Translations under genes and position numbers: made by a program
The notes under the pieces: model-generated
Database searches by the model: none
Told to the model about the DNA's origin: nothing
Seen by the model: the letters and a program-made list of their open reading frames with translations, nothing else
DNA from: Patellaria atrata CBS 101060
Lineage: Eukaryota
Assembly (NCBI GenBank): GCA_010093705.1
Contig: MU006090.1
Span: 620,001-684,000 of the forward strand
Direction of reading: 5' to 3'
DNA: 64,000 nucleotides
Part shown: piece by piece, positions 1-42,800 of the stretch
How positions within the stretch are numbered: the first letter of the stretch is position 1
How the letters are laid out: every line of letters begins with the position of its first letter

Positions 1-2477
1 TTGCTATCGTCATTTACACCGGATTCGTCATTCCTACTCGGTATATGCTTGGCTGGGCCCGCTGGATCAATTATCTAGACGTGGTTGCTTACGGTTTCGA
101 AGCTCTAATGATTAATGAGTTTCATGATCGCCAGTTTCCGTGCTCGGTCTTCATGCCACCCTTTCCTGACGCTTCAGGCCTTCAGAGGGTCTGTTCTACA
201 GTCGGTGCGCAGCCAGGTTCTGATACCGTTGATGGCGATGCATATATGAATTCCACCTTCGCGTATTATCATTCTCATAAATGGAGGGATTTCGGCATCA
301 TCATAGCATTTATAATCTTCCTGATGTTTACCTATCTAGCCGCCACCGAGTGGATATCAGCTAAGAAATCTAAGGGTGAAGTTCTTGTCTTTCGCCGTGG
401 TAAAGGCCCGGCACATCTCACCAAAGCTTCATCCCAGGACGTCGAAGCTATCTCAGAGAAGCCTGTTGGAGCCGAACACAACTTGAAGTCAGATCCTTCA
501 GCCGTTATCCAAAGGCAGACCGCTATTTTTCACTGGCAAGACGTTTGCTACGATATTAACATCAAGAAGGAAACTCGCAGAATTCTGGATCATGTTGATG
601 GTTGGGTCAAACCTGGTACTCTCACTGCTCTCATGGGTGTATCTGGTGCAGGTAAGACTACTTTACTTGATGTCCTTGCTACTCGTACGACAATTGGAGT
701 CGTCACCGGCGAGATGCTTGTGGACGGGCGACTCAGAGACGCATCATTCCAACGCAAGACTGGTTATGTTCAACAGCAGGATCTCCACCTGTCAACATCT
801 ACTGTTCGGGAGGCTCTGAATTTCAGTGCTCTTCTGCGACAACCCGCGCATATTCCCAAGGCAGAGAAACTGGCATATGTGGATGAAGTCATTAAGCTTC
901 TGGATATGAAAGAATACGCGGATGCAGTCGTTGGTGTTCCTGGAGAAGGTCTCAACGTTGAACAGCGTAAACGTCTCACAATCGGTGTGGAGCTCGCAGC
1001 GAAGCCTGAACTTCTTCTGTTCCTTGATGAACCTACATCAGGTTTGGACAGTCAGACATCATGGGCCATCTGTGATCTGATGGAGAAGCTCACAAAGAAC
1101 GGTCAAGCGGTTCTATGTACCATTCATCAACCCTCTGCCATGTTGTTCCAACGTTTCGATCGACTTCTGTTCCTTGCCAAAGGCGGTAAGACGGTGTATT
1201 TCGGTGAAGTCGGAAAGAACTCTCAAATTTTGATTGACTATTTCGAGCGTAACGGCGGCTTCCCTTGCCCTCGTGATGCTAATCCTGCCGAATGGATGCT
1301 TGAAGTCATTGGCGCAGCACCTGGATCCCACACTGATATCGATTGGTTTGACGTTTGGCGTAACAGCCTAGAATACCAAGAAGTCCAGAGGCATCTCCTG
1401 GAGCTAAAGGAGGAGAGACCATTGGTAACTCAGCCTAAGTCGTCCCCCGATGACAAAGCTAGTTACCGCGAATTCGCAGCACCTTTCGGAGTCCAACTAT
1501 GGGAAGTCCTCAAGCGAGTATTTGAACAGTACTGGCGCACTCCGTCATACATTTACTCTAAGGGGTCTATTTGCGTGTTCTCCGGTCTATTCATCGGTTT
1601 TTCCTTCTTCAACGTCAGGAACAGCCAGCAGGGTCTCCAGAATCAGATGTTCTCACTTTTCGCGCTTATGATAATCTTCGGTCAGCTCGTTCAACAGATT
1701 ATGCCTCTATTCGTTACCCAACGCGCCCTGTACGAGGTTCGAGAGCGTCCATCAAAGGCATACTCGTGGAAAGCTTTCATGATTGCGAACATCATTGTTG
1801 AGATCCCTTGGAACAGTCTTATGGCCGTCTTCATCTTCTTCTGTTGGTACTACCCGATCGGATTATATCGCAATGCCGAGGCCACCGATTCGGTTAACTT
1901 ACGCGGTTTCCAAATGTTCCTCTTCCTCCTGACCTTCCTTCTCTTCACTTGTACATTCGCCGATATGGTCATTGCAGCCATCGAGGACGCGGAAACCGGT
2001 GGCAATATTGCTAATCTTGCGTTCTCTCTCTGCTTGATCTTCTGTGGTGTCCTTGTAGGCCCGGAAGCATTGCCTGGTTTCTGGATCTTTATGTATCGTG
2101 TGTCCCCGTTCACGTATCTTATCTCAGGTATGCTCTCAACAGCGGTCGCGGACACCAATGTTGTGTGTGCCGACAATGAGTTCCTCCACTTCGAACCACC
2201 TTCTGGACAAACATGTGCCGAATACATGGATCCCTTGATTCGAGATGCTATAGGTTATCTGCAACCACAGACCGAAAATTCGACAACAGACTGCAGCTAT
2301 TGTACCATTTCTTCCACCAACTCCTATCTTGCCAGCGTTAACGCTTACTACAGCGAATCGTGGCGCAATTTCGGCATCATGTGGGCTTTCATCATCTTCA
2401 ATATTTTCGGTGCACTCTTTTTCTACTGGCTCGGAAGGGTTCCCAAGAAAACCAATGTGAAAGAGAAGAAGGAATAG
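1..2477 (+). CDS. PDR-family (full-size ABCG) multidrug ABC transporter, 5'-truncated by the window edge
   Basis: The frame is open from base 3 ([15 protein letters not shown]...). It shows the PDR_CDR loop, NBD2 Walker A GVSGAGKT, the degenerate signature [15 protein letters not shown], Walker [13 protein letters not shown] and a second TMD. Stop at 2475-2477. Confidence 0.97.
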
Positions 2478-3948
2478 GCGACCTATGCATAGACTTACGA
2501 TGGGGGTCACAGAGGAGTTCGAAGGCGTTATAAGAAAGGCAAATTTCCAGGCAACTGATTTCCTGGCGGTGTACTTGTACAAGATCTTTTCATACATGCT
2601 CTGAGCGATTAATTCCTCAAAGAAGGCGGTCTTTTTCTTTTGTATGCATACAGCGGGTCACCGCAGTCACATAATTCTCTTCTCTCATTACTTCTCTTTC
2701 GAATGTTCTGTGTGTAAAAGTTTGGCTGTTTCGAAGCATTTACAAAAGAGTAGAGTCAGCGGTACATATAATTTAATACAGTGAGGGTATAGCCCACACC
2801 AAAACAGTTCCACTGATCATATGTGATAAGGAATCCGAAAGATTGATTCATAGTAGGTATGGAGTAGTGGGAGTCCTTTACCTTAGGTAGAGAAATGTGG
2901 CCCATTCCTTGGCATTAAACGTTTCCGTCCTATCCCGTCGCTTCAGCTTGAAAAGCTTCTCGCGACATCTTACCGAGAATATAGGCAGAGATAAGTCAAT
3001 TATCCCCATTACTAAACTTATCAAGGGGGCTCACGGCTATCTTATATCTGTGACAGGGAACCACCTTACGTCCTCAATCATCTAACAACCGCACACAGGC
3101 CAGATCAGCATGAACGACATTTCGGAAACACAGAGGCTCTAATCTGGATTCACGCTGGAAGACTCGATCCACAGGTTTCTAACACAGATTACCTTTTGAA
3201 AACATGGGTGACGGAAAGCGCCGGCATCTCATATTGCAAAAAGACATTTTGTGTAAATATGTTCAACGCCTTATATGACCGTCCGTTGGGAGACGCAGAA
3301 CTACGTTACCAGGTCCACGAAATCCTTTGGTTTTCCTAATCTGACGATGGCTAGCAATATCTTCCTCGGACCGAATTATTTATAACTTTTGTAGCTAGAC
3401 GCTACTTCAACTATAACCACTGTTAAGTATTACATCACACCAGGCCATGTTATAGGTGCGAAACACAGGGGCGACTGCCAGGATTGGGACTGCGATGTTC
3501 CCCACACTCATGACTTCGAATAATCCACTATTCAGATGTTAATATCTGCAAGGAACCGTACCGGACCGAGCCACAACATTAGGACTCCAGGAGAAACGGC
3601 CAGTAAGATCACCGAGTATGATTCGATGTGGCGTCTTCCTTCTTGACCTGTTTTGCTCACTAAAGTAAGTAAGTACGCTATAGGACGGAAATAGCAAAAG
3701 GGAAGAGCATAGCGAGAAGTCCGTACTGGCCTAATGTGACGTCCAAAATGACGCAATATGCATGAGAATCAGCGACGCAGTATATATGTTTTCTTCTGTG
3801 AACCGTACCATGGTATTTCTTTGACCGTTCTAGTTTCTTTCATCTATCAAAATCAGATCAACCATCCCTTTAGTGTAGGAGTTCAAATACCCAAGTTCCC
3901 AATTCAACTCATCTCTATCTCAATTCCGTCTCCTTCAATTCCAGTACC

Positions 3949-4880
3949 ATGTTCTCCAAGCAGCCCAGACTCTCAACTCTAGCCCTTTTCACTGCAATGA
4001 TATCTATAGCGTTAGCAGCAGTGACTAATACCAACCTCCAAACCACATTCCCAACCGCCTCTAGCACCACGAACCTCGCCGCTGTCCAAACCATTCTCGC
4101 GAACGAGACTTTCGATGGCGAAATGCTCCAATGGGATCGTAGCCGTACGGACCCCTCTTCCACTATCTCTCCAGATTTCCCTCTCTTCATACACCCCCCT
4201 CTTACTCATTTCCCACCATAATAACCCTCACACACAGCATCCACCTGCAACGAACAAGCCGAAGGCGCCGACGCCGACGCCGTTTTCCTCCTCTTCGACG
4301 GCGCTACCCTCTCCAACGCAATAATCGGCCCCAACAACGGCGAAGGAATCCACTGTCTAAGAGCCTGCACGCTGAACAACATCTGGTGGACCGACGTCTG
4401 CGAAGACGCGGTCACGTTCAAGGGGAACGGTACCGGGACGGTTAACGGAGGCGGCGCGAGGAAGGCAGAGGATAAAGTCATGCAGCATAACGGGCCGGGA
4501 AACGTGGTGGTGAGGAATTTCTACGCCCAGGATGTGGGGAAGGTTTATAGGAGTTGTGGAAACTGCGAGGCGCAGTTTGCGCGGAACTCGAGGTTTGAGA
4601 ATTTGTTTGTTGAGGACGCCGGCGTAGTTGTGGGGGTTAATGGGAATTTGGGGGGTAAGTTGAACTGATATACCCTGTCTACTGTTTTGTGAGGAGTTGT
4701 GTACTGATGCGAGCAGATACTACGTTCATTTCCGATTCGTGTGTTAAGGGCTCGGTGGGAGCGAAGGGGATATGTAATTTGTATGAGGGAAATGATAATG
4801 GTGGCGAACCTACTAAGACGGCTGGTGTGCCGGATGGGGTGACGTGCGCGACGAGTGGGATTAGGACTACAGATTGTTAG
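3949..4880 (+). CDS. Secreted pectate lyase, family PL3 (3 exons: 3949-4144, 4238-4654, 4717-4880)
   Basis: Hydrophobic signal peptide. GT-AG introns 4145-4237 and 4655-4716 join in frame and give PL3 motifs GATLSNAIIG, EGIHC, WWTDVCEDAVT, DKVMQHNG and YRSCGNC. Confidence 0.93.
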
Positions 4881-5323
4881 GTAGGATACGCAGATATATA
4901 TTAAGGTTCATACGATAAGTATATCCCCCTTTTGAGGTAGGTCGATGTCTCCTCTCCACTTCGGGGTTTCCTAGAAACACTCTGGCGCAAGTCTTTGAAA
5001 GTTATGAAGAGTAGTTTGATGTATCACTTTGATTTGATTTACGTTTCGTTATATTATGCTTGTTTTCCTATACGTCCAGGTCAGTAGTAAGCATATATAT
5101 ATTAGACATTCATATGGATCTATACTTTTTGTATAGTCGAGGGGTTATTGCTTCTTTCCTCTTTAATGCGATCCCTACACCTATTACTTACCTTCTCTCA
5201 GGGTCGGTCACAAAATATGCACACAAAAGCCGTCCAGGTCACCTGACGTACAAAAAGTCAACCCGCTCCTTCTCAAAACAGTATTTCGGCCCTCAAGAAT
5301 ATATTCGGCTCCGGCCAAGGTAA

Positions 5324-5498
5324 ATCCTCATAGGGCATATGGTGCGTTAGGTTCTCCCGACCAGAACGAAGCGACAACCCATCATGGCGCCCCGGGTTCA
5401 ATTCCCGCTGGGACTCAGTGTCAATATAATTGTGACAGTGCTGAGGTGATAAGGAGGGGAGGGCCTTATCAAGACCGGACAGAGTCCGGTTTGTTTTT
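5324..5498 (+). ncRNA. Candidate Pol III-transcribed structured RNA with a tRNA-like 5' domain (not a canonical tRNA)
   Basis: A-box-like TAGGGCATATGG at 5331-5342. B-box/T-arm CGGG-TTCAATT-CCCG at 5393-5407. Hairpins at 5333-5392, 5414-5445, 5447-5471 and 5474-5490. TTTTT at 5494-5498. AT-rich element ~20-25 nt upstream. Confidence 0.5.
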
Positions 5499-6180
5499 GA
5501 TATTTTTTTCATTCATTTTTTCTATATATTTCTTTGTGATTGATGCTTTGTAGAATTCGATTTCTTTTTGTCCTATCTATTTATCAGTTGACTTCACAGA
5601 AAGCGGAGAGCTGCTCATACTATAGGCGTTACTTATATGATCATTTGCTGGTAGTTGATTGTTTTTGGCAAGCTTACAGAGCGTGGAGAAGTGCTAAAGG
5701 CGAGTGAGTGGAAGGTAAATTGCAAAATCTCCTGGATGGGTGACAGTGCAAGGCGAATGGGATGGATGAGGTGGGTATTTATAACTCAAACATTCTCTAA
5801 AAGTTTTTCTTTTACAACATTGGATCACATCTTGTTCATCGCTTGCGGTTCTCGCTGTGTGTCCAACCGTCTGTCGTTCACTCTACCGGTCGTAAATAGA
5901 TACTTCTCACTTGACAGTTCTCACAATTCCATTTCACTTTCTCTTTCTCTTTTACGGTCAACCTTCAGTCAATTCCTATTTCTGAATTTCTCTGGAAATC
6001 CCATCTCCTTCCTTTCACCGAGGCCATATCCTCGTCAGTCTCAAACAACTGGATCTCAGCAACTACAAATGAGTTCAAGGTTCATCATATCTCTCTATTC
6101 ACAGTTTATAAATTACGAACGTCGTCTTACGTGTGGAATTTCTAGCTGTTTATCAGAGTTCAGCTGACTCATGCAACTAA

Positions 6181-6415
6181 GTTGATATCTCACGAGCACT
6201 TCTTTCCTTCTTCTACGCTCCACCTTCCATCCGATAACCTTTCTTCAGCAACTGAAGACTATAACAGCTTTTTGATATCGGAAGTTCATTTGATATCTCG
6301 ACTTCCGAGCTATTTGGTCTGGTTCAACTGAATTAGCTATCGAGCCAGGTTGATATCTTACAGGGTACTTCTTTGCTTCTTCTACGTTGCGCCTTCCATC
6401 CAACAATCTTCTTCA
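6181..6415. repeat. Diverged ~67-bp direct repeat (6181-6247 and 6349-6415)
   Basis: Manual alignment of GTTGATATCT...CTTCTTCTACG...CCTTCCATCC...TTCTTCA gives about 10 substitutions and 2 single-base indels. Confidence 0.8.
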
Positions 6416-7074
6416 ATATCGAACAACTTCTCGCACGTCTCCGATGATTCGGATCCCTTACACCCAGTCTATTCGGAGGCTCGTTTAGGGTGAACAAACT
6501 TCAAACGTAGTTGCGCAGTTTTGTCTTCGCATCGATAAATACGGACGTTGACCGTGGAAAGCATCTTTCATCCAACTCCAGAAGAGCGTACCTTACTCCC
6601 TTAACGTGGTTCGAGGATCAGTCCATTTTGCGCTTCCCATCTTTATCATTTCTCTCGCCCCCATCTCTTCATTTGTTCTACTTTTCACCATTTACCCGTT
6701 TAGATCGATTGACATTCCGTTGTTTGGGAGTTCAACATCACGTTTCCTTCTAGCACAGGTCTCCCGAAGGGAGAGCATATCGCTTCCCTGTAACCTTTCT
6801 TCTGGTTTCATACATCATTTCCTTTTCACTCGCACAGTTTTAGCAAAGATCGCACCTGCATATTGCCATGGGTTCCCCTTCACCTGAGTCTCACACCTCA
6901 GACGTAGGTAATACACAGTAAGTCCACTTATCAACAGGACCACTCAATCACCCGTTCACAAGTATATAGGTCTTTATATGCTTCCCCCTTTCAAATCTTC
7001 ACGGGACCAGAGAAAAACCGGAAACTATGCGTAACTCATAAAGAGCTTTTCTCGTCGAAATCCGAATACATAGA

Positions 7075-8688
7075 AGCCCTCTGCGCCTCCGGGCGGCCAC
7101 ACGGCTTGAAATTTAGCAAACTTGAAGATCTAAAACTGGCTTTTGACAAGGCATGCGAAGGGACTAGTGAAAACGGACTCAACGGTGCCGAAAAGGTATG
7201 GATAAACTTCCCTACCCGTTTACTCAGATAGAAAAGAAGCCCACGATCATATACAGCCTATTTCAATACTACTCCACGTCTATGACGCAATGTCTCCCAT
7301 TCTTCATGAGGCAAATGAAGCCCTCATAGATATTGCTCGAAAGCATGGAGCATCCACTCCAAATCCGGCAGCTCCGAAGAAGGCCAGCGCTGGTGACCGT
7401 CAAGGTCGTCGCGGCAGAGGCACTACTTCATCAACTAACCGTACCACCCCTGGCACTACAATACCACAACCCAGAGATGCTTCGTCTAGAGCCGGTTCTC
7501 CTACTAGAGTAACACCACAATACGTTTCATCCTCAGAATCATCTTCAGGCGCTGAATCTTTTCCTCGGAACGCTGCCCACGCTATTCTAAAGGCTATTAT
7601 CAGTAAAAAGACACCCAACGTCATGGCAGAATTTCAAAGCTATATCGATGCTGAGATCAATTTGGTTAGCTCCTCTACAGACCTCCAAGTCGCTGCCGGG
7701 TTAGGAAAGTTGTATCTCCCTGACGCCTCTGAGACAACCGTCTCCATAATGGTCGAATGGGATGTACGGAGGCATCCTGACACAAGACATCAATACGTTA
7801 GAACTGTGCAGGCTATATATCCTCGCGGCCGAATTGGGCGTTGAGAAGCTGGTGACGCTGTCATTTGAAAGACTCGTCAAACATAAGGAGAAGTGGCTGC
7901 CAGATGAGAAGAATCGGAACTTGAAAGTGCTGGTGAGAATTATATATTACATTCAACAAGTGGAGATGAAGTTGATCAAACAGGAGAAGGAAGATGGGAA
8001 GCAAGGAAGAAATGCGGGCGTAAGCACCAACAATAAGATGAGAGCCATTGAACCTGCTCAGAAGAGGAAGTCAAATCCCACCAATGCAAATACAAGTGCA
8101 GGCTCGGGCAGGGAGATCCCACCTCCAGATTCCATTCCCGCACTGCAGAAGTTGCAATATATAGTCGTCGACGCTCTCATCAACTCTCCAAATGGTCCCA
8201 GGGTGATACCGTCACTTGTCAAGTTCATGGAGCGCGGCTTTTTGAGCAGAGTGGTTTCTGGATTGGCTCGCAAGCTGGTGGATTCTGAGCGCGAGAAATT
8301 GCAGACGGAGTCAAATGAGGAAGTTGCCAAGGAAAGAGATGGTCAATCCTGGATTGAGAAATGGGTTCATGGCGATGGACATGTCAAAGAGAACGGGAAG
8401 AGGACAGCGGAGAGTGGTGTAATAGTACTCGAGACAGACGACACTAGAGTTGAAAAAGTCAGTACCCCAAAGCGTGCGAAACACGAGCACGAACATAAGA
8501 CAGTCACCACCGGCACCCAGGATGTTGACGATGCGCTGAGAGCTCACTACGATGGTATTCTGCCGGAGATCAATGCGTACGGGGCCGTTTTCAAGGACTC
8601 TCAGGGTGGTGCGACTAGTGGAGATGGTAGTTTTGGCGATTACGAGAGCAGTGTCATTGAGCGTGCGAATTCGGTTGCTCAGAACTAG
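7075..8688 (+). pseudogene. Hypothetical protein with a BTB/POZ-like segment, interrupted by a +1 frameshift (pseudogene or sequence error); start uncertain
   Basis: Intron 7196-7256 links an upstream exon in frame to ORF 7290-7844. Deleting one G at 7759-7761 joins ...LPDASETTVSIMVEW to MYGG...LCRLYILAAELGVEKL, which resembles the fungal BTB 'V.WLY.G...LY.LA..L' pattern. Confidence 0.55.
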
Positions 8689-11398
8689 CTGAGTAAACAT
8701 TGGAAATTTGTCTGCAGATATTTCTTGCTGGAGCAAATCAAAATCTGGGATTCATTTGGTTGGACATGGAGGATGAGATATCATTCTGCACATTCAAACG
8801 GAGTATGGTGTCCATAGAAGAGTTTTTGATATTACTCATCATGCGGTTTGGAGGAGCTTTCATCAGTTAGCTCAAGTCCTTTGTCTTATTTTGAAAGATG
8901 CAGAAAATTGAGCGTCATGAAGGAGTGATTTGCGTGGTTCCTTGACTAGTTCCTTTGGTCAAATTCTCAATACACGCTTATTGCCCAAAGTGGGAGGTCT
9001 ACTTAAAAATACGATTCTCACTCGTGTCCCTCCGGCTATAAATTGCTACTCTCCCTCCCGTCTTCTTCCCTTCTTCACTAACTCCTTACCTTTAACAATC
9101 CTCTACTTTACGCTCTTGCGCTCATTCATCACCTACGTCCCAACCATACTCCTTAACCTGTTCTGCTCAAGGGAAGTCCTACACTTATAGTTCCTGAGCT
9201 ATCTTCAGTACTTTGTTCAGCTTTTGCTCCATCTCTTCTAATTATTCCTCCTATACTCATTCCTCGCTTAGTTATTCCTCTTCTACTTCCCGTCATCCCT
9301 ATCCGCCTCATTTCCTTTCAGCTCAAACGACGACACTAATACTCACATCACTTACCCCTATCCCCTCCCCTAACTTCTTACTTATCTACCTAACTCTTGT
9401 TCTTCTCCATAACCTCTCTCCTACCCTCTTAGCTTTCTCCCCTACAAGGAATATATACCTTTAACTATTCCTATCCCTCCATTCATATCCCTCTATTCCT
9501 ATCCCATCCTCATATCCCCCACTCTATCCCTCCTCCTAACCCCTTTCCCATCATTCCTCCATCTCCTCCATCCTCCTCGTACCCCCTCCCCCAAACCAAA
9601 CTCAACCAATCCACATGACCGTCCTATTCCCCATTCCACTTATTCCACACACATCTCAGTCTCTTCTTTCAAGCCCACCCCCCTTTCTCCTCCTCCAACT
9701 CACCACGCTCCACCCATACACACCTAACCTAACTCATCTAACCGCCTATTCACTCTTACCACTCAACCAATCCATCCTATACACACACCTAACACTCAAC
9801 ACTCCAAGACCCATATCATCGACTCACATCCCCACACGCGTTTGCACTACCTCGGATCAATCATCCGTGTCACGCATTCACGTCTTCTATATCTCTTGCC
9901 ATCTCGCCATCTCACCAATCCTATCCCCGCAGATTTTATCCCACACCCCTTCCCCTTCCCACCAATTTCAACCCCTTATCCCAAATACCCAAGCACCCAA
10001 GCACCTCCCCCGCTTCTCAAACACGCTCTTCGCCCACCATCCACCATGCACATCCAACCCGACTGGAGTGCGAGTTTGCTGCCTCCTTTCTCCTCCTTCC
10101 CCACGTCCTCTTCTCCCTTCCCGAAAAAAGTCTCCCAAAAGAAAAGTCTCCCAACAACCCCAAAGCCAAAATAAAAGGAAAGTGCAGGACACACCCAATC
10201 CCGCCTTCCTTCCATCCAACCTCCCCCAAACAGATAATAGCGTAGACGGATCGGATATACAACAGACGGGGAAAAAAGTTGGAGAGGGGGATGGGGGGAT
10301 GGAGCTGGTATGGAACGTAAACCCGAAGAGACCATATGCGAACGGAGTCCCAGGGGGACGTGGAGTTCGAGTGTGTGCCCAGTACAAAAGAAAGCGTCGT
10401 ATACGGAAGCACGCAAACCGAGCGAGAGAGAAGAGATCCCATCTTCCGTACGTGTGGTATGCAAATCACAGAAACGAGCTGACTTTGTATGGGAAGTGCA
10501 CTCGCAGTACCTCTTCGCCCAAAGTAAAATCACACACGACATCACAAAATCTCAAACCAGCATATTTTGAAAATACAATTCTTATTTCCTCTCTAGTAGA
10601 ATAAAAACACCATTTCAACCCTCGGTTCTAATCCTAATAGGCTTCCTTGAAGTCCCCACGTCCACCACTACCATCACCACGCAAAACAACGTCATATATA
10701 GTAAACTCGGATGCAACCAGCCCACTGTGGACGTGCAAAGCCGATCCAACGGCCCAACCGACCGTTCCATCATATACATCCTCCTCAGTCGTTTCCCCAT
10801 CCACCACTCGCCCAAAGAATACTCATAGTGCGGTTCGTGACCTATCCCGACGACACCACCAAAACCGGCACAAACCTTGACGCCAGCCGCAACATTATTT
10901 TGCGTCACGGATCCGCCGGCGCCGCTTCTTCCCTATTGGAGCGAAAAGAAAAGAAGGAAAAAGAAAGAATGGAGGAGAATGGACGAAAGTAAAAACACGA
11001 AGCAAAATCTGACTGGAAAGAAACAAACCACCGACCAAACTAACTGGCTGTATATACAATGCAAACATTCAGAGTTAGCGGGCCAGCACTTGACGCCGTT
11101 GAAAAAAAAAAATGAAAAAAAAGGGAAAGTGAATGCAAAGACTCTAAGTCTAAAAGAAAGCTTGACCGAAAGGAAAGAACAATTTTGATCCGACGATTAA
11201 AGAATAGTGTACAAGGTCCAGATGAATCGTTGATGGATCGTTAATTTGTAAGGGCGATCGTGGTGGTCAGGAAGGATAATAATAGGGCCGTCTACTTTGC
11301 TCTAGGCTGCTCGTACGTGGCGCTGCTCATGCCTACCTTCATGCTTGTAAGCTTGATTATATGAGGATGATTGCTGGATGTTCGAGCCGCCGGAGAGA

Positions 11399-13347
11399 TC
11401 ATCGTCTCATGCCCTGACCTTGCTGCTGTGGCATTGAGTGCATGCCGAGAGGTTGACCATTGGGTTGAATGCCCATGCCGTATGGGTTAGCGTGATGATT
11501 CATTTCACCGAGGAAATGGCTCATAGCCATGCCGCCAAGACCTTGCGATTGAGAAACAGGGCAGTCTTTATGAGCAAGGAGGAGAGTCTTCAGGTTGACG
11601 ATTTCCTCACGCAACTGAGTGACAGTAGCAGAAAGTGCGTCATTCTCGGTAGAGAACAACTCGACTTTGGCTTGCAGATTTGCTAACCATTGCTTCTTAC
11701 GTTGACGACATTTGAGAGCGGCAACCCTGGAAAGAGATTAGCATAAGTGACGGCTATAACGTCAGAAAGGAACATACCTGTTGCGTTCGAGAAAGTTCTT
11801 GCGCTTCTCCTCATCGGTCATCTTCTTGTTACCTTGACCTCCTTCAGTCTTGTGGTCTTCGTCTTCTTCTGAGTCATCCATTTCCATATCCATGGGCTCT
11901 CCACTCATAGACTTGGCCTTCTTGCTCGGTGGAGCCTTCACGCTATCGTCAGCTTTGCGACGACCGTTAGTTTGACCCTTTGGAGCTGCGCCCTTCTTTC
12001 CTCTGTTTCTTGTTGTGGGCTTGGTTTGTTCGCTTTGATTGCTATCGGAGAAGTCTCCAGTCTCTGCTGAGTTTGCAATGCTTGTGATTGAGTTCTTAGC
12101 TCGTCTCGATGTTGGGGAGGTATCTTGAGATTGACCACCCATTTGATGATTTAAATTGGTGTTTACAGCATGTGCGGGCTGTCCTGGTACAGCAAATTGA
12201 CTGTTGTTGGCGCGGTTAGCTCCATTAGCTTGAGCTAGCATAAACAATCCATTCGCGGCATCATTGGCATCGTGTTGACCGAAAGGATCTGCTTGATTTT
12301 GCTGCGGTTGTGCAGCAGTCGGTTGTCTGGGTTCTGGAACACTCATGGAGACAGGTGGTTTAGACGTAGGTGGATTATTATTACTAAAACTGTTGGCTTT
12401 GGAAGCTGCTGCAGCACTTAGGGCTGTTCGTTGGAATTCAATTGTGCTGGGAGTTGCGCCACCGCTTTGAAGGGAGTTGAAAAATGCTTGAGAGCCTGGA
12501 CTGGGAACAGGGAACATAGACCCGCCACCACCGGGGGTCAACCCAGTCCGAAGAGATGATTCGTTAGGTGTAAAGAGACCACGAGTGAGATGAGATTCAC
12601 TGAAGTAGTCACCTGCACTGGTAGGCCCAGTAAGCATAGCAGGACTGAGCGGACCAGACCTTAGGGAATTAGGCCAACCAGGAGTACCACCAGGTATTAA
12701 AGAAGCTGGAGAGGTGATGCTTGCAACGGGAGGAAGAAGACTTTTCCCAGGTGTGTCTCCAGTAGAGCTAAATGCTTGATCGAAAGGGTTGGGTTCGACA
12801 GGAAAATTATTACTGTTATGTTGTTGGTTGAAATAATCAGGCTGATCAGATCCGGTGTTGTTCTGTGGTCGAGGAGGAGGTGCTAACGGCTGCGCATTGG
12901 AGTTATTATTCGAGGTGTTAGAGGGTTCGTCGACGTTTGATGGTTCTAAGGCTTGTTAGTTATGACACAGTGAAGAGGCGATAGAGCATTAAGGAGGTTC
13001 CGACTCTGTAGCGACATACCTGATCGAACAGCATCTGGTTCCTTGATGTCCTCAGCCGGTTGCGACGTATACTCCTTTTTCACATTGTCTGGCGCAAACA
13101 CTTAGTACAAGAAGCAAGAAGATGCAGACGATAGATGGGAGATGAGGTGCATGATGCGCAATTGAGGTGGCGCATCATGGTAAGTCAAGGATGACGGTGA
13201 CTATAGTGATTGTAAATGCGAAGAATAAAATGGAATTGACTTACCTTCACGATGACTGTTGATCTGTTTCTTGGAGTCTCGTGGTGAGGACATCCTCGAA
13301 TTCAAGTGGGGAGAGTTGTTGTTACTTCGAGTAGCAACGGCGGCCAT
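11399..13347 (-). CDS. atf1: ATF/CREB-family bZIP stress transcription factor Atf1/AtfA (exons 13347-13245, 13088-13020, 12945-11778, 11726-11399)
   Basis: The spliced product has PLAPPPRP, EPNPFDQAF, RSGPLSPAML and LRTGLTPGGGGSMFP (Aft1 OSA/HRA/HRR-type motifs). The bZIP EEKRKNFLERNRVAALKCRQRKKQWL is reconstituted across intron 11777-11727. Confidence 0.95.
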
Positions 13348-15693
13348 GATGAGTGACGTAGATATTCTATCCCGTCGATCCTTTGCTCTTTCCAGCTACG
13401 TTTTGGCTAACAAGGGAAAGCGCAAATCGTATTCTCCGCCCTTCTTCGCTGGCACCAAACTTGGCCCTTTCGTCGACAACCTTATTAATGTCTTTGATTG
13501 TATAGAAATAAATTGTTTTATCCGCGAACCGAACTAGAGGAAATGGTTTATCTGTAGCCATTGTGCATTAGTAAAACCATGCGCGGCAAGTGTGCTGTTG
13601 CGCTGCGATAAGCTCCTCTTTTTCCGAAGAGGTGGCCGTTTTGTTGGTTTGATGAGACGGAAGGTGGAAGGTGGCAAAATCGGAGAGGAGGCGATTCAGG
13701 CGCAAGACTTACCGCGCGACCAAAATGTCCAACTGACAACCACAACCCCAACTTTCACAACTTCATCGACCGTTCAAGACGCAACTCGATTGTGTATATA
13801 TCCCAGTGATACCGATGAAAGAATAACTTTCAAAGGTCGTGGTGATGATTCTGCCCCAACGAAGAGGTCGAGCGCGCGCCGGGTGGTGACGCAATGATGA
13901 GAAAAGGAGAGGGAAAAAAAGGACAAAGCAGTAATGGGCAACAACAGCCAGTAGTCAACTGTCTTCCGGTCGCTGTTGCTTAATTCGATTTCGGAAAGTG
14001 TAATGTCTGACACTTGAGGCTTGTAGCCGTAAAGCCGTACACAAGGCCGGTACCCAGTAAATGCGCGTTTGGGTTGATCGGTTTCTGGTCGATGATGTAG
14101 CTGGCGAGGGAGTTTAGAAATGACGCAGCAGGCGCGCCGTAGAAATATTTGTGCCAGTGATAGAATTAAGGAGTCCTTGGCATCACGTGCCAGCACACAC
14201 CATTCCTTTTTCTGCTTCTCTAATTATTAATCCTCCAACTTTCGCTCTCAACAACCTAACAACCCCCGAGAATAAATCGGTAATATAATATTGCGGATCT
14301 CTTACCTTTTATCTCCAACCTAATCAGCATTCTACAATTGCTTGTTCTCACACTCAAAATATCCTGAATCATGTTGGCTATGTTTTTGGGTTTTTGTATG
14401 ACTGACTCAGATCGGCCGATCTGCCTAAGATCACGTGCTTCGAGATTACCGAAATCGCCGATACTCCGGCAAATGCGGACCCGCCGCGGAAGGTCTGTCA
14501 TCGTGAAGCAGCTCGACATCATGGCCATCCTGCAAAATCTGATTCTACAACTCTGCATATACGGTCCTTCGAAAAAAAGGTCTCTCGCGGTCTCGCCTCA
14601 AAGTGAAGCTAAACTTGAGCCTCTTCTTCCGCTTAGAATTACCTATTTGCAACAGCTCAAGCAAAGAAAACGCAAACTTCTACTTCCCCCTCTCCCCAGA
14701 ATCTGGGGATGACCTTGACCTGATATCTCATTTTGTAAACCTGTATCGTTCCATCGTTCCGTACTACTACTTGGTACAGTACCTTACTCGCAGCTATGCA
14801 GATCATTTACGGAACTTCAAGTCTGAAGCCTCAACCGGAGAGCTGCAGTCGGGCCTTGGCGCTTCGAGCATGCGTCTGCTGTGATGCCCGATAGACGTCA
14901 GACTCAGGGTTGAAACATAACATTCATCTTTCAGAGGAAGACGATCATTGGTGCTATTATAGTATTATACAGCACCAGCTAATCGTATCGGTCCCTTTAC
15001 GAAGTAATTCCTGCGAAGTACTCGTAACGTGGCTAAGGTAAGAAGAGAAGGGATTAGAATGATACTTCTAATATAAGGTAGGATCGGACAGACCGCCTTG
15101 AGAAGCAAACGCATATATAGGAAGATAGTATATGCTCTAAAAGTTGTAAAGGAAGTAGACCCGATTGGAAAGCTTTGTATATGCTTCATTTTCTTGCAGT
15201 AGATAGACCAAGAAGAGAATAGGCTTCATTCTCTAGCATTGGACAGACTAAAAAGCGAAGGAATACGTGAAAAACAAAATGAAAAATAAACATGGGGAGT
15301 AGATGCGCATATACAGGTACTGGAGAAGGGAGAGTGCTGAACCCTACAGAAAGAAAATGACTACTGTACTGTATGACAAAGGAACCCGGACACGTACGGT
15401 AAGGTGTGATGTCCTGTATGGAGTGGAAATAAAGCAAATAGCAAAGAGCCAAAAGCTAGGACTACCGCCAGATGCTCACACTACTGTAATAACCAAGTTC
15501 TCCTGATAGAAGTACTACGATATGGGATTGTCCCGTCATCGGTACATCCGTTAAGTCTCGATCCTATGCTCCTTAGTGATATCCAACATCCAGATACAAA
15601 ACGAAACCCATACCTTTATCACCCACCCATTCTCCAACTAAGCCTGCATACAGTACACCATAGCACCACGTCCTACTCTCCCCTACCAACCCC

Positions 15694-16332
15694 CTACCCC
15701 ATCCACTTCGCCGCCTGATTCGGCACCAATCCCCTCACAACCTCAACCCCCCTCTCATGCCCCCTCCTCCTCTCCCTCCCCTCCCCCCTCGCAGCCATCC
15801 CATCCCCCCTCCGCCCTCCTACAAACACAACAACAAAATCCCCCACCGTCTCCCCCGGCCCCACAACCCCCAACGGCGCAATCCGACAATACCTCCCAAC
15901 CCTAGCACCAGCCCCCACCCTCGCCGCAGCCTCGACGACGGACCCCTCACCGACAACGGCGCCCGCCTCAACCACAGCGCCAGCTTCGAGCGTGACGTTG
16001 GCGCCGAGTATCGTTTTGATATCCCCATCATTTTTAATCCCCCCTGTATAATCACCAGCGGCTTTAACACCCAAGCCCACCCGTTCCCCTACTACGCTCC
16101 CCTCCCCGATCTCCACGGCCCCGACTACGCTCTCGACCCGACAGTACGGATGCAACACCGCGCCCGCCGCGACACTGACACGATGAGTGCCGGTCAGGAG
16201 TGCGTGGTTGGCGATGACGGCGCTCGGGGCGATGATTGTGGGGGGTTTGGGCGTCGAGGGCGCGGTTGAGGCACGGCGGGCGGTGGCGGCGGTGAGGGCG
16301 GCGGTGCGGGCGGCTGCCGCTGCTGCGGCCAT
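15694..16332 (-). CDS. Dynactin p27 (DCTN6)-like left-handed beta-helix protein
   Basis: Hexapeptide repeats (IAPSAVIANHALLTG, AGAVLHP, IGEGSVVGE, VGAGARVGRYCRIAP) in the order typical of fungal dynactin subunit 6. Confidence 0.7.
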   Translation of the reverse strand: MAAAAAAARTAALTAATARRASTAPSTPKPPTIIAPSAVIANHALLTGTHRVSVAAGAVLHPYCRVESVVGAVEIGEGSVVGERVGLGVKAAGDYTGGIKNDGDIKTILGANVTLEAGAVVEAGAVVGEGSVVEAAARVGAGARVGRYCRIAPLGVVGPGETVGDFVVVFVGGRRGDGMAARGEGRERRRGHERGVEVVRGLVPNQAAKWMG

Positions 16333-16956
16333 TGTGTGCGAAAGGTCGGTGCGCGGTGGTGAGTTGATCGGTGTGGGAACTTTGTGTGGGTTGTGGGTTG
16401 TGTTGGGAAGGTGTCGTGGTTGGTTGGGATGGATGGAGGGCTCTTCGCTTTTTGTGGTTTGGATATGCTGATGCGGAATCTGTGATGTCGTGGGTTTGAA
16501 AGCTGGAGTTGTGGGATGATTTGTGGTTGTTAGCGGGGAGGTGAGGGGAGTTGGGGGACATATGAGGTAAACGCGTCGAGATGGGACGCGGGGTCACGGG
16601 GTAAGGAATGTCGCTATAAAGGGTCTTTAATCCATCCTGCTACGTCAAATTCGTGATAGAGGAGAGAGCGATTTGCAAGTACTAAATTAAGCACCAATAG
16701 AATAAAGGGGACATTACAATTCTATATCATCTCTTCATAGCCCATGCTCATGAGGACATGGTCAGGACATGTCTGATCCCTAGAACTATACGAGATAATA
16801 GTCGTGACCCTCCCCCTATGTCAACATTTTCCACCGAATCTGATTTTTGCGATTCTAATACAGTATGCTTACGCCGTACGCCACATACCATGCAACCTCC
16901 CGTCTTCCCAATACACAATATTCCAATTACCCACAATACAGCAGCATCAGCGACCC

Positions 16957-17804
16957 CTAATAATCACTCCCGGCAAACCCCAACTTCCCCTCCTTCCCCT
17001 CCACATAGTTCACCATGTCGTCAATCGTGCACACCTTCAACCCCCACTTCTTCCCAAAGGCCAACAGTTCATCCCTCTTCATCATATCTCCACCCACCAT
17101 CTCCGTCTTCCCCTCAATCACCTCCCCGTCCGTGATCATTTCGCAGATAACCCCCACTGGTTGCTTCCCCGCGAGCCTACAAAGCTCCACCGCAGCCTCC
17201 GTATGTCCATGGCGCGCTCTGATCCCACCTTCCCTCGCCTGCAGCGGGAGCACATGACCCGGTCTCCTAAAGCTCGTCGGCTTCGACCCCGGGTCCGCAA
17301 GCATACGGCACGTGAGCGCTCTATCGTGCGCCGAAATACCGGTTGTGATACCCGGGACATTGGCGTCAACCGTGACGGCGTACGCGGTCCGGTTGGGATC
17401 TGCATTGTCTGAGACCATCTGCGGGAGGTCGAGTTCGACGGCGCGAGAGACGGGCATGGGCGCGCAGATGTAGCCGGAAGTGTAGCGGATCATGAAGGCC
17501 ATTTTGGCCGCGGTGAGGTCTTCGGCGGCGATGATGAGGTCGCCTTCATTCTCTCGGGCGGGATTGTCGAGAACAACTACGAATTCTCCTCTTGCTAAAC
17601 CATACCGTCAGCGATTGTATTAAGGATTTTGTGGTGGCGAGAGAGAGGAGTAGACATACCAAATGCTTCTATGGTGTCTGGTATCGAGTCGAAAGCGGGG
17701 TGAGCGGGTTGCGACACACCGGCCACATGGCTCTTGGTATGCCCATGAACGTGACCGTTCATATAAACGCTTGTGGTTTCTTTGATAATTGCTGAAGGGG
17801 CCAT
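16957..17804 (-). CDS. RIB3: 3,4-dihydroxy-2-butanone-4-phosphate synthase (exons 17804-17660, 17594-16957)
   Basis: Spliced sequence FARGEFVVVLDNPARENEGDLIIAA, plus TTGISAHDRALT, FRRPGHVLPL and GHTEAAVELCRLAG. Confidence 0.96.
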
Positions 17805-18306
17805 TGTGTGAAGTCGAAGTTGTTGGAAATCTAGATCCAAAATCGATGATATATGCCGCGCGGAAGTTAACCGTCCCTTGTTCGATCGGCTCTGCTTAGG
17901 AAGAATCGGTCGGAATTCTGTCAGCTGCAATTAGGTGATGCGGGTGGGTGAAGATGTTGAAATTGAGATGATAAAGCGAGGATTGAGCTCAGGCGTGATC
18001 ATGGTGAGAATGGTGAAGCGCATTGGCAAGTCCATACTTTTTACATATAATCCAAAGTGTCCGAATCGACCGTCAATTTGTCCTCGTGAACGGACATGGC
18101 TGAGATGGGGACAGAATTCCTCGGGCCGGAGAGGAGCCGGAAACGCAGCAGTCACAAGCTGAGCAAAGAGAAAGTTGGTTATAGGATAATGAGAGGTTGA
18201 AGATTTTCTTATACTTTACAGCTTACTCTGCAGATATAGCAATGACCTCAACCAACATATCCAACATAAACCATATTCATACAAGTACAATATATACTGC
18301 ATATCG

Positions 18307-20652
18307 TTACACTAGCTTGAAAATCCCACTGGTTCCCTCAAACGCCGTGATCGAACCTCTCAATGACTTTGAATCACCATAATACTTGATCCTATACGTT
18401 CCAGCTGTCGTCTCAATATGATCCCATCCTCCAGTCTCCCAAGTGATGGTAACTTCACTAGTCCCAAGAGTGGTGCTAGTTCTCTTCCACTCGAATAGGA
18501 GATCCCAATCAGCATCATTGCGGATCATTTCCCATGACCCATCGCCAGCTTGTTTCTCTACTGCAGCATACGTCTTCTCCAGACGAAGATTGTTACGAGG
18601 ATTTGCACCCACGAAAGTGACGGAAACTTTGGCTCCAACGGCATATGATGCTGGAGCGTTCTTAGTAACCTGACCGAATTTCTTGCCAATCCCTGCCGAG
18701 TCGAACACGACACCTGTGATAAAACTGAGACTTCTTTCTCTATTATCTGGGGGAGCTGGACCGGCTGCGGGATGAGCTGTACTCGGTTGTTCGGGAGACA
18801 GATACGGGAGATTTGATAATGTGAGATTGATGTACGCAGCTAGCGTATGAGGCCCGTAAAGCGTAGAAGCACCCTCATAGCGTTGAATACCATATTCGGC
18901 TGTAGTTGTGATGTAGTGCGTATAGGAATTGGCAGGTCCACCGAGTACTACAATCGGATCCTCATCAAGGAAGGACTCAGCAGATGAAGCAACAGCTTCA
19001 CGCCATTGCCGACCCGCCATTGTACTTGCTTCGCCTGGAGAAACAATAATGACAAGCTGACCCACTCTAAGGGCTTGGATATCGACAATATTCGGTGTCC
19101 AGTCATATGGAACCTTAGCAGCACCGACATCGAGGAGAATAGGTTTTGGGGCCTGACACTCGCGCTGTTCCGGAGAAGGCGGATGGAGGAGGCCACCTAC
19201 AACAGACCAAAGAGGATTATCTCCGTTACCAGAGTCGTTCTGCGTGAAATCAAACGCACCGGGACCATCACTGGTGCCAGCTGCGAAGGAGTATCCCAGC
19301 GCAGCACTGCAGGTCTTAACTACAGTGCCGTTGGGCAACGCGAAACTGTACTTCGAAAGGTCTTTGAAAGTGTGAAAGGAGCGGATTGTACCACCTTTTA
19401 CAGGTGTCCCAGCATAATCGTAGGCTGCGCGAGCTCCCGCGTATTGACGTTTCCCAATCTCATAGCAGGATTTGGTGCCAGCGTCATTAAGGCCGAAGAA
19501 TGGACCTCGGCCATGACAGTCTTGACTTTTACCACCGCAAGTGCTGTCATTGAAGCGACATTCAGAACCACTGCCATCCTCACAGTAGGCTCCCATGACG
19601 TTAGGAGTTGTATCCCCTACATTGGCTTGTGAGAATCCAGCAACGAAATCTGAAGCTGCATTTGCAGTGCCAGATATTTCATCCTCAAATAACTTAGCTG
19701 CTACTCCTTTGTTGTCAGCCGTGATAATGGTATTATTCCCGAGCATAGATGTCCCATGGACAGCGAACCATGTTAGGATACCAATATTCTTTCCATCACT
19801 GCTTCGTTGGAATTTTAGAAGAGTTAGAGTCTTATCAACACTCTCAGAGTACCTATTGCGTTCAGATTCAGGGTTAGCAAGATAAGCATAAAGACTACGG
19901 TTAATGTTGGCATCCGAGACAGCTGTTGTCGCTACACTGAGCGTTCCAGCTTCTGCGCTCTCGTGGGCTCGTCGAATGGATAGGAGTGCTCCATCAACGA
20001 TAGCTTGGTAGCTCTGCTTATCAAATCCCTTTGCAGTAATTTGGGGTAGGAGGTAATTCAACCAAGCAGCTGGCCCCGAATGGGAATGCGTGCCGGTTAC
20101 AGCAACATTGTGCTGGTCATACATGGCATAACCGCCACCTAATGCTTTCAGTCCGTCCAGAATACCGTTTCTGACTGCGGTGTCTCCAGACTGGGTGTCT
20201 AGGACAAGGTAAACAAAACGGTCGCTAGGGTTGGAAACGTCTCCGATTACGAAAGCTCTTGAGTAGAGACGTTGGCGGAGACCGGTGCCGATTTGGCTGC
20301 CGTTGGCATATCCCATAAGGTTAAGCTCAACGACCGGACTGTTATCTCAGTCAGCACTCACACATTCAACCTCTACAATCCTACGAAAGACATACCCAGT
20401 AATATCCGCTTTCCCCACCCCGATCAAATATTGATCGCCATCCTCAGCTTGTATGCTCCCCGTATCTGCTTTGAAACCACCGCTCAGCACCGTCTGCCAC
20501 AAATCCCCAGTGTCCCAAAAGCTCTTACCTCTCGCGCCATTCCAGTGCCACAGTCGCTGTCCCGTCGCTCCCCTATCCGCGAACAGCTGCGCCAGCAAGA
20601 CGAGCAGAAGCGTCGACGCCGCTAGGGCGACTGCGAGATGCGAACGTGCCAT
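18307..20652 (-). CDS. Neutral/alkaline non-lysosomal ceramidase (exons 20652-20396, 20338-18307)
   Basis: N-terminal membrane anchor. YLIGVGKADITG|PVVELNLMGYA across intron 20395-20339. THSHSGP, WFAVHGTSM, SQANVGDTTPN and QRYEGASTLYGP motifs. Confidence 0.96.
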
Positions 20653-39894: not shown

Positions 39895-42800
39895 TTAAGC
39901 CGCAAGCACCCTCCTAATACCCGCTAAGAACCCACTGGGTTTCTTCTCCTTCGCTTTTTCCTTCTCCCTCTTATCTCTATGCTCCTTGTTTTCCCTAGAA
40001 CTGCGCTCCCTATGCTCCCTATGCTCCCTCTGTTCTTTCTCCTCACGTTCAGGTCTCTCTTCTTTCACTGATCTAGGGCTCTCAGTTACACTCTCCCGTC
40101 TACTAGTCCTCGGACGCTCAGTCACGCTTTCTCGCCTATTGGTTTTCGATCTCTCACTCTCCCGCTCAGTCCGATTGCTACGTGATTTCTCGGGTTCAGG
40201 TCTATGCGTGCGAGGACGATCGCTATTATGTCGACTAGATGTCGGTCTGTCGCTGTCCACACGGCTAGTTTTCGGTCTATCGCTGTCGACACGGCTAGTT
40301 TTCGGTCTATCGCTGTCGACGCGGCTGGACTTCGGCCTGTCACTCTCGACGCGGATAGATTTTGAACGGTCGCTCTCATGGCGGCTAGAGCGTGGCCGAT
40401 CCGAATGTCGTTCAGAATTGTGCCGACTAGAGCGGGGCCGATCCGAGTGATGATGGTGATGGTGGGAATGGTGACGGTCCGAAGAATGGCGATGATGTCG
40501 GTGAGAACGGTCTGATGAATGCTGTGATGAAGCCTTCGGTGATCTTTGACCTTCGGCAGTTACTTCGACTTCTGGAGCCGCTACGGGCTCTAGCTCAGGT
40601 GCTGATTCTGCCACAGGTTCTGCTGCAGCCTCTTCTGCAGGCCGGGCTGGGGGCTCTGGCATTGCTTTTGGCTCTGGCTCTGCTGCAAGTTCTGGTTCTG
40701 GCTCAGCTGCAGGTTCTGGCTCAGGTTCCACTACTGGTGCGGGCTCTACTGGCGGTAGATCTTCTGAATCCAACTCCCGAGAAGCCTCCGCGGGCTCTGC
40801 CGCGACAATCTCTTCCAGAGTAGCGGGAGCAGGCTGATCAGTTGCTCCCGATGCGGGTGCTTCAGATGCAGTATCATTCACGGCAACATCTGCAACACCT
40901 GCAGCTTCTGCTTCTTTCTGGCGTCGTCTCTCCTCTTTTTTAGCTTGGTGTCTAGCTTCTTCCTCTGGTGTCCGTTCTCGACGTGTGTGATGGCTAGAAT
41001 GCCTACTAGAGGTAGGTCTAGAAGACTTTGGAGAAATATCAGGTTTTGGTGTAAAGATACCAAACAATCCTAATGCTTTCGCTGGAGATTGCGGCTTCAA
41101 GGGAGCAGTAGAAGCACGCTTAAGTGTTCGCTGTGGCGAAGGTGTAGAAGGCATTATGGTAGATCGTCTTGTCGGTTTTGGTGGCGTAGCCTCGGTTGCT
41201 TTCTCCTTGGGTTCGGATGGTTCAGGAGGACCTGGACCTTCGAGCGCCGCTTCTGCTTTCGCACGCTCACGTTCTTTTCTCTCCGCTCTTCGTTTTCTTC
41301 GGCCCTCATCTTCCTCTTGTTGCTTCACAAGAGCGGCCTCTTCTGCTTGTTTTGCAAGTCGCCTAGCTTCACGCTTCTCCGCTCGAGCTGCTTCTTCAGC
41401 TTGTTCGGCGGCAAGACGCTTAGCTTCACGCCTCGCTTCATGACGGCGACGTCGTTCTTCTTCAGCTTGTTTGGCAGCATCTTCCTCTGCTTTTAATTTT
41501 GCAGCTTCGGCTTCCTCTTCTGCTTTTATCCTTTCAGCTTCAGCACGCCGTTTTGCCCTACGTTCTTCACGTCTACGCTCGCGCTCCTCCTCGTCCCGCA
41601 ACCGCTGTTCTTCCTCCTCTCGGAAACGTTTTTGCTCCTCTTCTTGCGCCCTACCCACCTCTTCAGCTTTCTTCGCTGCACGCCTCTTCTTCCTTTCGCG
41701 TTCCTCCTCTGGTGTCAACTTTCGAGAAGAGGAATGGCGTGATTTGTGTTTTGATTCCTTGCCAATATCCTTATCCTTGCTCTCACCACTCCCCAGACTT
41801 CCCTCAAGGAAAGCTGGGGTCCCAGATATGTAACTTGCATCGCTTTCACGCCTCTTTGAGGAGCGTTTCGCAAAGGACGACTTTCGCGGAGCAAGTGAAG
41901 TGGGTAGAGAGTCAGTAGTAGCAGGGTTTGCCTCCGGTTCGGTCTTGACGGTCTTTGCATCCTCATTGGCTACTGCGGCCTGTTCGGCCTCTGGAGCAGG
42001 GTTCTCTTCAGCAGCAGTCTCTGTAGGCTCCTCTACTGACTTCGCAGACTCTTCTACTGCCGGAGTTTCAGCTGATGGTTGCTCTGCAGACTGGACAACA
42101 GGCTCTACCTCATCAGCAGGTGCGGCGTCGACGTTAGCCCCAGCTTCAGCTGCTGGTTCGGTATTTGGTGCTTCCGTCTCAGCAGCTGGTTCTGCTTCGG
42201 CAGCTGGTCCATCTACTGCTAATTTATCTACTACTAGTTCTTTAACCGCTGGCTTTGGGTCTGTTGCTAGTTCTCGGTCTGCTGCTGGTTCTGGATCTGC
42301 TGCTGGTTCTGGATCTGCTGCTGGTTCTGGATCTGCTGCTGGTTCTGGGTCTGCTGCTGGTTCTGGATCTNNNNNNNNNNNNNNNNNNNNNNNNNNNNNN
42401 NNNNNNNNNNNNNNNNNNNNNNNNNNNNNNNNNNNNNNNNNNNNNNNNNNNNNNNNNNNNNNNNNNNNNNNNNNNNNNNNNNNNNNNNNNNNNNNNNNNN
42501 NNNNNNNNNNNNNNNNNNNNNNNNNNNNNNNNNNNNNNNNNNNNNNNNNNNNNNNNNNNNNNNNNNNNNNNNNNNNNNNNNNNNNNNNNNNNNNNNNNNN
42601 NNNNNNNNNNNNNNNNNNNNNNNNNNNNNNNNNNNNNNNNNNNNNTCTGCTGCTGGTTCTGGATCTGCTGCTGGTTCTGGGTCTGCTCCTAGTTCTGCTT
42701 CGAGTGCTGGTTCTGCTTCGGCTTCGACTTCTAATTCTGCTTCGGCTGCGGGCTCTGATTCGGCTACTGGTTCAGCTTCGGCTGCTGATTGGTCTACCGC

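Follow-up and report, generated by a model that had tools for sequence, protein, structure and literature searches.

The window analysed here, 64,000 nucleotides (64 kb) of fungal nuclear DNA from Patellaria atrata, a Dothideomycete of the order Patellariales, begins with the coding sequence of a PDR-type ABC transporter and a gene for a PL3 pectate lyase, which are followed by a gene for a hypothetical protein and by one for an Aft1/Atf1-type bZIP factor (Table 1). The ORF within the hypothetical gene has a product with 100% identity to a hypothetical protein of Patellaria atrata CBS 101060. For the product of the whole gene no Pfam family was found, its sole match in a search of 5.8 billion proteins, over its length range, was itself, and the gene is apparently an orphan. 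Between the pectate lyase gene and this one extends an intergenic gap of about 2 kb, and within it lies the 175-nt unit at 5324-5498 that is considered here, some 450 nt downstream of the pectate lyase gene and 1370 nt upstream of the next coding sequence. The same intergenic region holds direct repeats at 6181-6241, 6349-6410 and 6565-6576, spaced about 169-172 nt apart and made up of a 44-nt pair that is 84% alike together with shorter words; TRF gave them no score, and they point to an old tandem duplication ahead of the hypothetical gene, which starts at 6868. Much farther along the window, the minus strand of 39895-47858 contains very long open frames of 958 and 1863 codons; the AT skew on the plus strand of this region is strong, at -0.30 to -0.43, an 18-nt tandem repeat (for example at 45240-45370) points to a large repeat-rich protein gene, and a 275-N assembly gap falls within it at 42371-42645.

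A coding reading of the unit was rejected. The stop-to-stop frame that crosses it (5167-5553) has neither a methionine nor a Pfam match, so the unit is not a stand-alone coding gene, and none of the minus-strand frames of at least 80 codons overlaps it. Its 5' edge is unmarked in base composition because a G+C-richer block begins near 5200, not at 5324, and after the T-run the G+C content drops sharply, from 0.53 to 0.22-0.30. Read from the sequence, the TATA-like word a short distance upstream is a possible candidate for an upstream Pol III promoter element.

Table 1. Genes, sequence motifs and structural elements in and around the intergenic unit at 5324-5498 (positions in the 64-kb window)
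Feature	Position	Strand	Basis or remark
PDR-type ABC transporter	3-2477		coding
PL3 pectate lyase	exon 4225-4668 and neighbouring exons	+	frame end near 4880, read by eye
TATA-like AT-rich word AATATATT	5298-5305	+	19-26 nt 5' of unit; sequence reading; possible promoter element
Degenerate tRNA-like head	5324-5416	+	class-II Ser(cga)-like cloverleaf, relaxed-threshold ARAGORN only
A-box-like word TAGGGCATATGG	5331-5342	+	sequence reading
39-nt core	5385-5423	+	separate contig, raised depth, two DNA runs
T-arm CGGG-TTCAATT-CCCG	5393-5407	+	holds B box GGTTCAATTCC at 5395-5405
Hairpin 1, CTCAG-TGTCA / TGACA-(GTG bulge)-CTGAG	5414-5445	+	fold
Hairpin 2, TGATAAGG-N9-CCTTATCA	5447-5471	either	perfect 8-bp palindrome
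Hairpin 3, ACCGGAC-AGA-GTCCGGT	5474-5490; 5472-5492 with G-U	+	perfect 7 bp
T-runs T5, T7, T6	5494-5498, 5503-5509, 5516-5521	+	candidate Pol III terminators
Hypothetical protein gene	6868-8688		coding sequence; ORF 7750-8688
Aft1/Atf1-type bZIP factor	11762-12955	-

The initial annotation had proposed at this position an undescribed Pol III-type RNA, composed of a tRNA-like head with an A-box-like 12-mer and a B box in a T-arm, three hairpins and an oligo-T end, and every motif that it listed is present, at coordinates that are exact or within one base. The A-box-like word sits 52 nt 5' of the B box and has T8, A14 and G18G19 in tRNA register, with G rather than a pyrimidine at position 11; it differs at several positions from the A-box consensus, TRGCNNAGTGG. 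The B-box pattern GGTTCGANTCC has a single match in the 64 kb, counting both strands, and this is the one held by the T-arm. Immediately after the hairpins comes the expected oligo-T, here T5, and the three T-runs supply the oligo-T terminator that belongs to a type-2 Pol III gene, in a flank that is T-rich regardless.

The rarity of this combination was gauged against a chance model of 300 third-order Markov (Markov-3) simulations of the 64-kb window. On average the B-box pattern alone occurs 1.02 times per simulated window, and 0.16 times once the 4-bp T stem, which adds two further pairs, is included. With an A-box-like word 25-80 nt upstream the combination arose in 1 of the 300 simulations, and with a T5 within 120 nt as well in none of them (0/300), two figures that flatter the finding since the A-box pattern was chosen post hoc, with the sequence already known, so that the true odds are less extreme. 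Within a single window the combination of A box, B box and T-run is nevertheless unlikely to arise by chance, and the overall architecture that the annotation had described (an A-box-like word, a good B box in a T-arm, a structured tail and a T-run) is both real and jointly rare in the simulations.

The head that carries these boxes is not a tRNA. ARAGORN at its default setting finds no tRNA genes in the window, and none when introns are allowed; Rfam gives no tRNA match at the gathering score, nor at E<=10 over 5200-5600, and returns noise only for the 105-nt head alone, with no tRNA match at E<=10. When its threshold is relaxed (-ps90, -ps80), ARAGORN draws a 93-nt class-II Ser(cga)-like cloverleaf exactly at 5324-5416, a call at the level of noise because it is 1 of 3 in the window at the 90% threshold and 1 of 46 at 80% (16 calls are made at 85%). 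In that drawing the acceptor forms 5 of its 7 pairs, the D stem is weak, the T stem consists of 4 bp and a C-C mismatch, and the anticodon loop, CCCGACC, is without U33 and without a purine at 37; the head has neither the canonical anticodon loop nor the 5-bp T stem of a tRNA gene. Relaxed calls nearby, a Thr with an intron at 5442-5577, a Phe on the minus strand and a 'Pyl' at 5759-5843, were rejected as noise without a B box. Many of the false calls across the window are located in 39895-47858.

In place of D and anticodon arms the annotation had seen one long stem (GGGC/GCCC, ATGG/CCAT, CGTT/AGCG, GTTCT/AGAAC), and the minimum-energy fold of 5324-5416 recovers this stem; the fold is not better than those of shuffled sequences (z -0.18, with 81 of 200 shuffles equally good); for the whole 175 nt the value is z -1.19. 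The idea of a split tRNA gene was rejected: a search of 2401-5390 for a 5' acceptor strand that would pair with 5409-5415 or 5410-5416 returned four full 7-nt pairings, none of them with D-arm-like sequence after it. The absence of a known RNA family, which the annotation had also inferred, holds for Rfam 15, where no match reaches the gathering score over the whole window and the covariance models run on pieces of the unit give noise only (E of 2.8 or more), with no match of the unit to snRNA, snoRNA, SRP, RNase P/MRP, Y or vault RNA. By eye, no C/D or H/ACA box arrangement is seen in the unit.

The three hairpins that follow the head lie about one base from the positions that the annotation implied, and their stems measure 10 bp (with a 3-nt bulge), 8 bp and 7-9 bp. 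Precursors of the Dicer type, including those of milRNAs, have hairpin stems of about 20 bp or more that give a duplex of roughly 19-25 nt; the stems here are too short for this, and the suggestion of a milRNA or pre-miRNA-like precursor was rejected on stem length. Folded together, the block 5412-5493 reaches -31.3 kcal/mol on the plus strand (z -4.81) and -26.7 kcal/mol on the minus strand (z -5.53), and on neither strand did any of 200 shuffles do as well. When it is ranked against the real window with adjustment for G+C, the block stands 17th of 10,594 sliding windows on the plus strand and 124th on the minus strand; on the same adjusted scale, better folds occur at several other loci of the 64 kb. 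The most stable 82-nt fold of the window, again G+C-adjusted, is at 16249-16340, a tract of 77-84% G+C with GGC/GCG-type repeats that is probably a coding or simple-sequence repeat.

The window contains 38 perfect inverted repeats (stem at least 7, loop 3-12), against 44 +/- 9 in 40 simulations, and an adjacent pair of them like hairpins 2 and 3 arises on average 0.43 times per simulated window. Hairpin 3 is the top terminator-like site of 12 in window positions 1-20000, and forms 9 bp on the plus strand, including G-U, against 7 on the minus strand. The block is unusual, not exceptional, and carries no mark of an RNA over a DNA feature; because it folds well on both strands, its hairpins may be DNA palindromes. 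Hairpin 2 reads TGATAAG on either strand and hairpin 3 reads CGG-N7-CCG, and the two may equally well be an inverted pair of GATA-factor sites and a Zn2Cys6-type site, which they resemble. Two words recur in the neighbourhood, the 10-mer GTGACAGTGC of hairpin 1 (5432-5441) at 5740-5749, and the 11-nt word CGTCCAGGTCA of 5073-5083 at 5231-5241, and from their sequence these may be cis-regulatory motifs or chance.

The number of genomic copies was approached through the contigs of two runs (X1 and X2) of one sample, probably DNA, placed on 3300-7300. In both runs one contig stops at 5414, another begins at 5394, and a third, of 39 nt, spans 5385-5423 and overlaps each of them by 30 nt, the overlaps around this core being equal to k-1. 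Depth over the core is 494 in X1, against 315 and 330 in the flanks (about 1.5x), and 994 in X2, against 446 and 475 (about 2.2x), a ratio that differs from that of X1. Because the contigs break around 5385-5423 and the depth there is raised about 1.5-2.2x, these data from one sample suggest at least one further genomic copy of the 39-nt core, differing at 5384 and 5424. The B box lies in the middle of the core, whose right end coincides with the last paired base of the 5' arm of hairpin 1. A search for contigs of a copy at least 90% alike returned three records per run, all of this locus, so the other copy would be diverged or unrelated outside the core.

Many dispersed copies would, according to the initial annotation, mark the unit as a SINE. 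The locus is not unique, the core being apparently present at least twice in the genome, yet this is no high-copy SINE: the unit occurs once within the 64 kb, and depth suggests about one extra copy of the core. Exact matches to the 39-mer 5385-5423 number zero among metagenome contigs, and those to its central 23-mer zero among metagenome, prokaryote-genome and viral contigs, all of them non-fungal collections; since the 23-mer is missing from these, a contaminant tRNA is unlikely. No exact occurrence of the same 23-mer was found in literature text. The annotation had noted no visible target-site duplication (TSD), and none stands above chance: among about 52,800 start-end pairs scanned around the unit, 7-nt direct repeats turned up twice, against about 3 expected. 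A search for TG..CA termini that enclose the unit and carry a 4-6-bp TSD found none. An A-rich or simple-repeat tail is missing, and the unit ends instead in T-runs on the sense strand.

Of the readings considered, we tentatively favour one in which 5324-5498 is what remains, in low copy number, of a tRNA gene or a tRNA-derived element of the Patellaria atrata nuclear genome, an interpretation that seems to us quite possible and that we hold with reserve. The parts that bind TFIIIC would have been kept, namely a good B box in its T-arm and, 52 nt before it, a weak A box, while the cloverleaf would have been lost, and about 80 nt of hairpin-forming sequence unrelated to tRNA would lead to the cluster of T-runs. 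If the unit is still used, its boxes would be bound by TFIIIC, and Pol III transcription would be expected to begin some 10-20 nt upstream of 5324 and to end at the T5 or, as backups, at the T7 or T6; the product would be an RNA of roughly 175-190 nt whose 3' end is a stem followed by a U-tract. Descent from a tRNA, binding of TFIIIC, any transcription and any function of the unit are what we infer from the features described above. Those that argue for a relic are the co-occurrence of the B box and its 4-bp T stem with a T-run and with an A-box-like word spaced as in a tRNA, seen in 0/300 simulated windows; the B-box match that is the only one of the 64 kb; the bases T8, A14 and G18G19 in tRNA register; the relaxed ARAGORN cloverleaf that coincides exactly with 5324-5416; and the core contig breaks seen in two runs. 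Against it stand a head that neither default ARAGORN nor Rfam recognises, a relaxed call that is noise, a fold equal to that of shuffles and an A-box pattern defined post hoc. The depth ratios, moreover, differ (1.5 and 2.2) within one sample, the other copy was never itself seen, a TSD does not rise above chance, and an A-rich tail is missing.

Relics of this kind have precedents. In the account of yeast drawn on here, the tRNA-gene relics ZOD1 and iYGR033C still hold the Pol III machinery (PMC5356446). Together with the extra-TFIIIC (ETC) sites of Saccharomyces cerevisiae they resemble the present unit in being intergenic and either degenerate descendants of tRNA genes or bare B boxes, which have kept boxes that bind TFIIIC, encode no tRNA, and are weakly transcribed or only bound by the factors (PMC5356446). 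They differ in that TFIIIC and Pol III occupancy is known there from ChIP, whereas the unit here is known from its sequence alone; in that a particular tRNA ancestor can be traced there and not here; and in that a three-hairpin tail is not described in the portion of that account on which we rely (PMC5356446). In Aspergillus fumigatus, single- or low-copy SINE-like units related to tRNA, 140-493 bp in length and ending before an oligo-T tract, are described in the part of the source used here (PMC5063351). A survey of the literature on fungal SINEs and Pol III units found nothing beyond ZOD1/ETC, AfuSINE2, Helenus and RPR1/SNR52 as comparators.

It is somewhat unlikely, in our judgement, that the locus holds no RNA gene and no tRNA ancestry at all, its boxes being chance matches in a 2-kb intergenic region and its hairpins DNA palindromes such as sites for dimeric factors, for example an inverted GATA pair in hairpin 2 and a Zn2Cys6-type CGG-N7-CCG in hairpin 3. 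Chance alone should give about one B-box pattern per window (mean 1.02), the cloverleaf and the fold of the head are at noise level, and the hairpins are strand-symmetric perfect palindromes of a kind whose adjacent pairing has a mean of 0.43 per simulated window. TGATAAG on both strands of hairpin 2 and CGG-N7-CCG in hairpin 3 fit the motifs of such factors, and the return of GTGACAGTGC at 5740 and of CGTCCAGGTCA at 5073 and 5231 is what repeated cis-elements might give. The G+C-richer block that runs from near 5200 leaves the 5' edge of the unit unmarked, and a 1-in-300 coincidence will often be met among the some 250,000 windows that were scanned. The joint pattern of A box, B box, T stem and T-run, however, appears in 0/300 simulated windows, and a random word is not expected at the centre of a 39-nt sequence that is apparently present twice in the genome. 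The next coding sequence, 1370 nt downstream, is also far for a fungal upstream element to act upon, although not impossibly so.

The same promoter architecture that favours a relic would equally serve a genuine, undescribed Pol III ncRNA gene, in which a tRNA-like leader with A and B boxes drives an RNA of about 80 nt with three hairpins, made either as one molecule of roughly 175 nt or released by RNase P/Z-type cleavage at the head, and in which there would be two paralogous genes; this we regard as unlikely. The hairpin block is much more stable than its shuffles (z -4.81, 0/200), the plus strand gains G-U pairs (-31.3 against -26.7 kcal/mol, with 9 bp against 7 in hairpin 3), and the block ends in a stem and U-tract, as many Pol III RNAs do. 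The 39-nt identity has the B box at its centre and runs precisely to the last paired base of the 5' arm of hairpin 1, where a variable loop would begin. On the other side, the cores of the hairpins are perfect palindromes and the minus strand folds as well or better (z -5.53), the block is only 17th of 10,594 windows with several other loci better for their G+C, the stems are too short for milRNA precursors, and no C/D or H/ACA box arrangement is seen by eye. The fuller proposal, that Patellaria atrata has a small family (at least two) of new Pol III RNA genes, each with a tRNA-derived leader that lacks a cloverleaf and an RNA of about 80 nt with three hairpins and a final stem and U-tract, is a shade more doubtful again; such a leader would supply the A and B boxes and perhaps also an RNase P/Z cleavage site.

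The same layout is shown by the tRNA-miRNA encoded RNAs (TMERs) of murine gammaherpesvirus 68, single Pol III transcripts in which hairpins and a T-run come directly after a tRNA-like head that bears A and B boxes and is not aminoacylated. The TMERs are viral and their hairpins have the size of pre-miRNAs (about 20 bp or more), whereas the stems here are of 7-10 bp and the locus belongs to a fungal nuclear genome. Yeast RPR1 and SNR52 likewise carry A and B boxes in a 5' leader ahead of a functional RNA and end at a T-run terminator, in the passages of the source used here (PMC5356446). What lies downstream of their leaders is RNase P RNA and a C/D snoRNA, respectively, whereas the tail of the present unit matches no Rfam family and, by eye, shows no C/D or H/ACA order.

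The weakest alternative, and in our view a distinctly improbable one, is that the unit is a copy of a mobile element with few diverged copies (a tRNA-derived SINE, a solo LTR of a tRNA-bearing, Helenus-type TRIM, or the tail of a LINE), for which the apparent second core copy and the sharp G+C drop past the T-run could be cited, along with the low-copy tRNA-related SINEs of a Pezizomycotina genome (PMC5063351) and the fungal TRIMs whose LTRs hold tRNA-like sequence conserved mainly around the promoter boxes (PMC10886601), but which is opposed by the lack of a TSD above chance or of TG..CA ends with a 4-6-bp TSD, by a tail that is neither A-rich nor simple-repeat and closes in T-runs, by one copy in 64 kb with a depth that implies only about one extra copy of the core, and by the failure to find any contig at least 90% alike beyond the three records per run of this locus. 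As far as the source used here describes it, AfuSINE2 is a comparable element of 140-493 bp, in low or single copy in a filamentous ascomycete, whose tRNA-related head contains degenerate A and B boxes and is separated from the oligo-T by a long stretch unrelated to tRNA; it differs in having TSDs of 4-14 bp, and 5 of 8 were reported to be transcribed, whereas the unit here is without a TSD and is represented by its DNA sequence only (PMC5063351). Helenus TRIMs (TRIMp3) share tRNA-like sequence conserved mainly around the promoter boxes, with no tRNA fold. In contrast to the unit, they possess LTRs with a primer-binding site and a polypurine tract, and have TSDs of 5 bp; those from fungi in the part of the source drawn on come from rust fungi (PMC10886601); TG..CA termini with a TSD were not found at the unit.

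We return to the decayed tRNA-derived unit as the reading we prefer for its economy, and the lesson of the locus depends on what the unit proves to be. If it is a relic, or a coincidence, it illustrates how a gene can be mimicked by short palindromes combined with a B box and a T-run, and why a check of copy number and strand symmetry should come before such loci are named ncRNA genes. If instead TFIIIC binds it, or if it is transcribed, it would be among the very few Pol III loci described in filamentous ascomycetes beyond those for tRNA, 5S and U6, and it would present a tRNA gene in the course of decaying into a promoter-only leader ahead of a new structured RNA.
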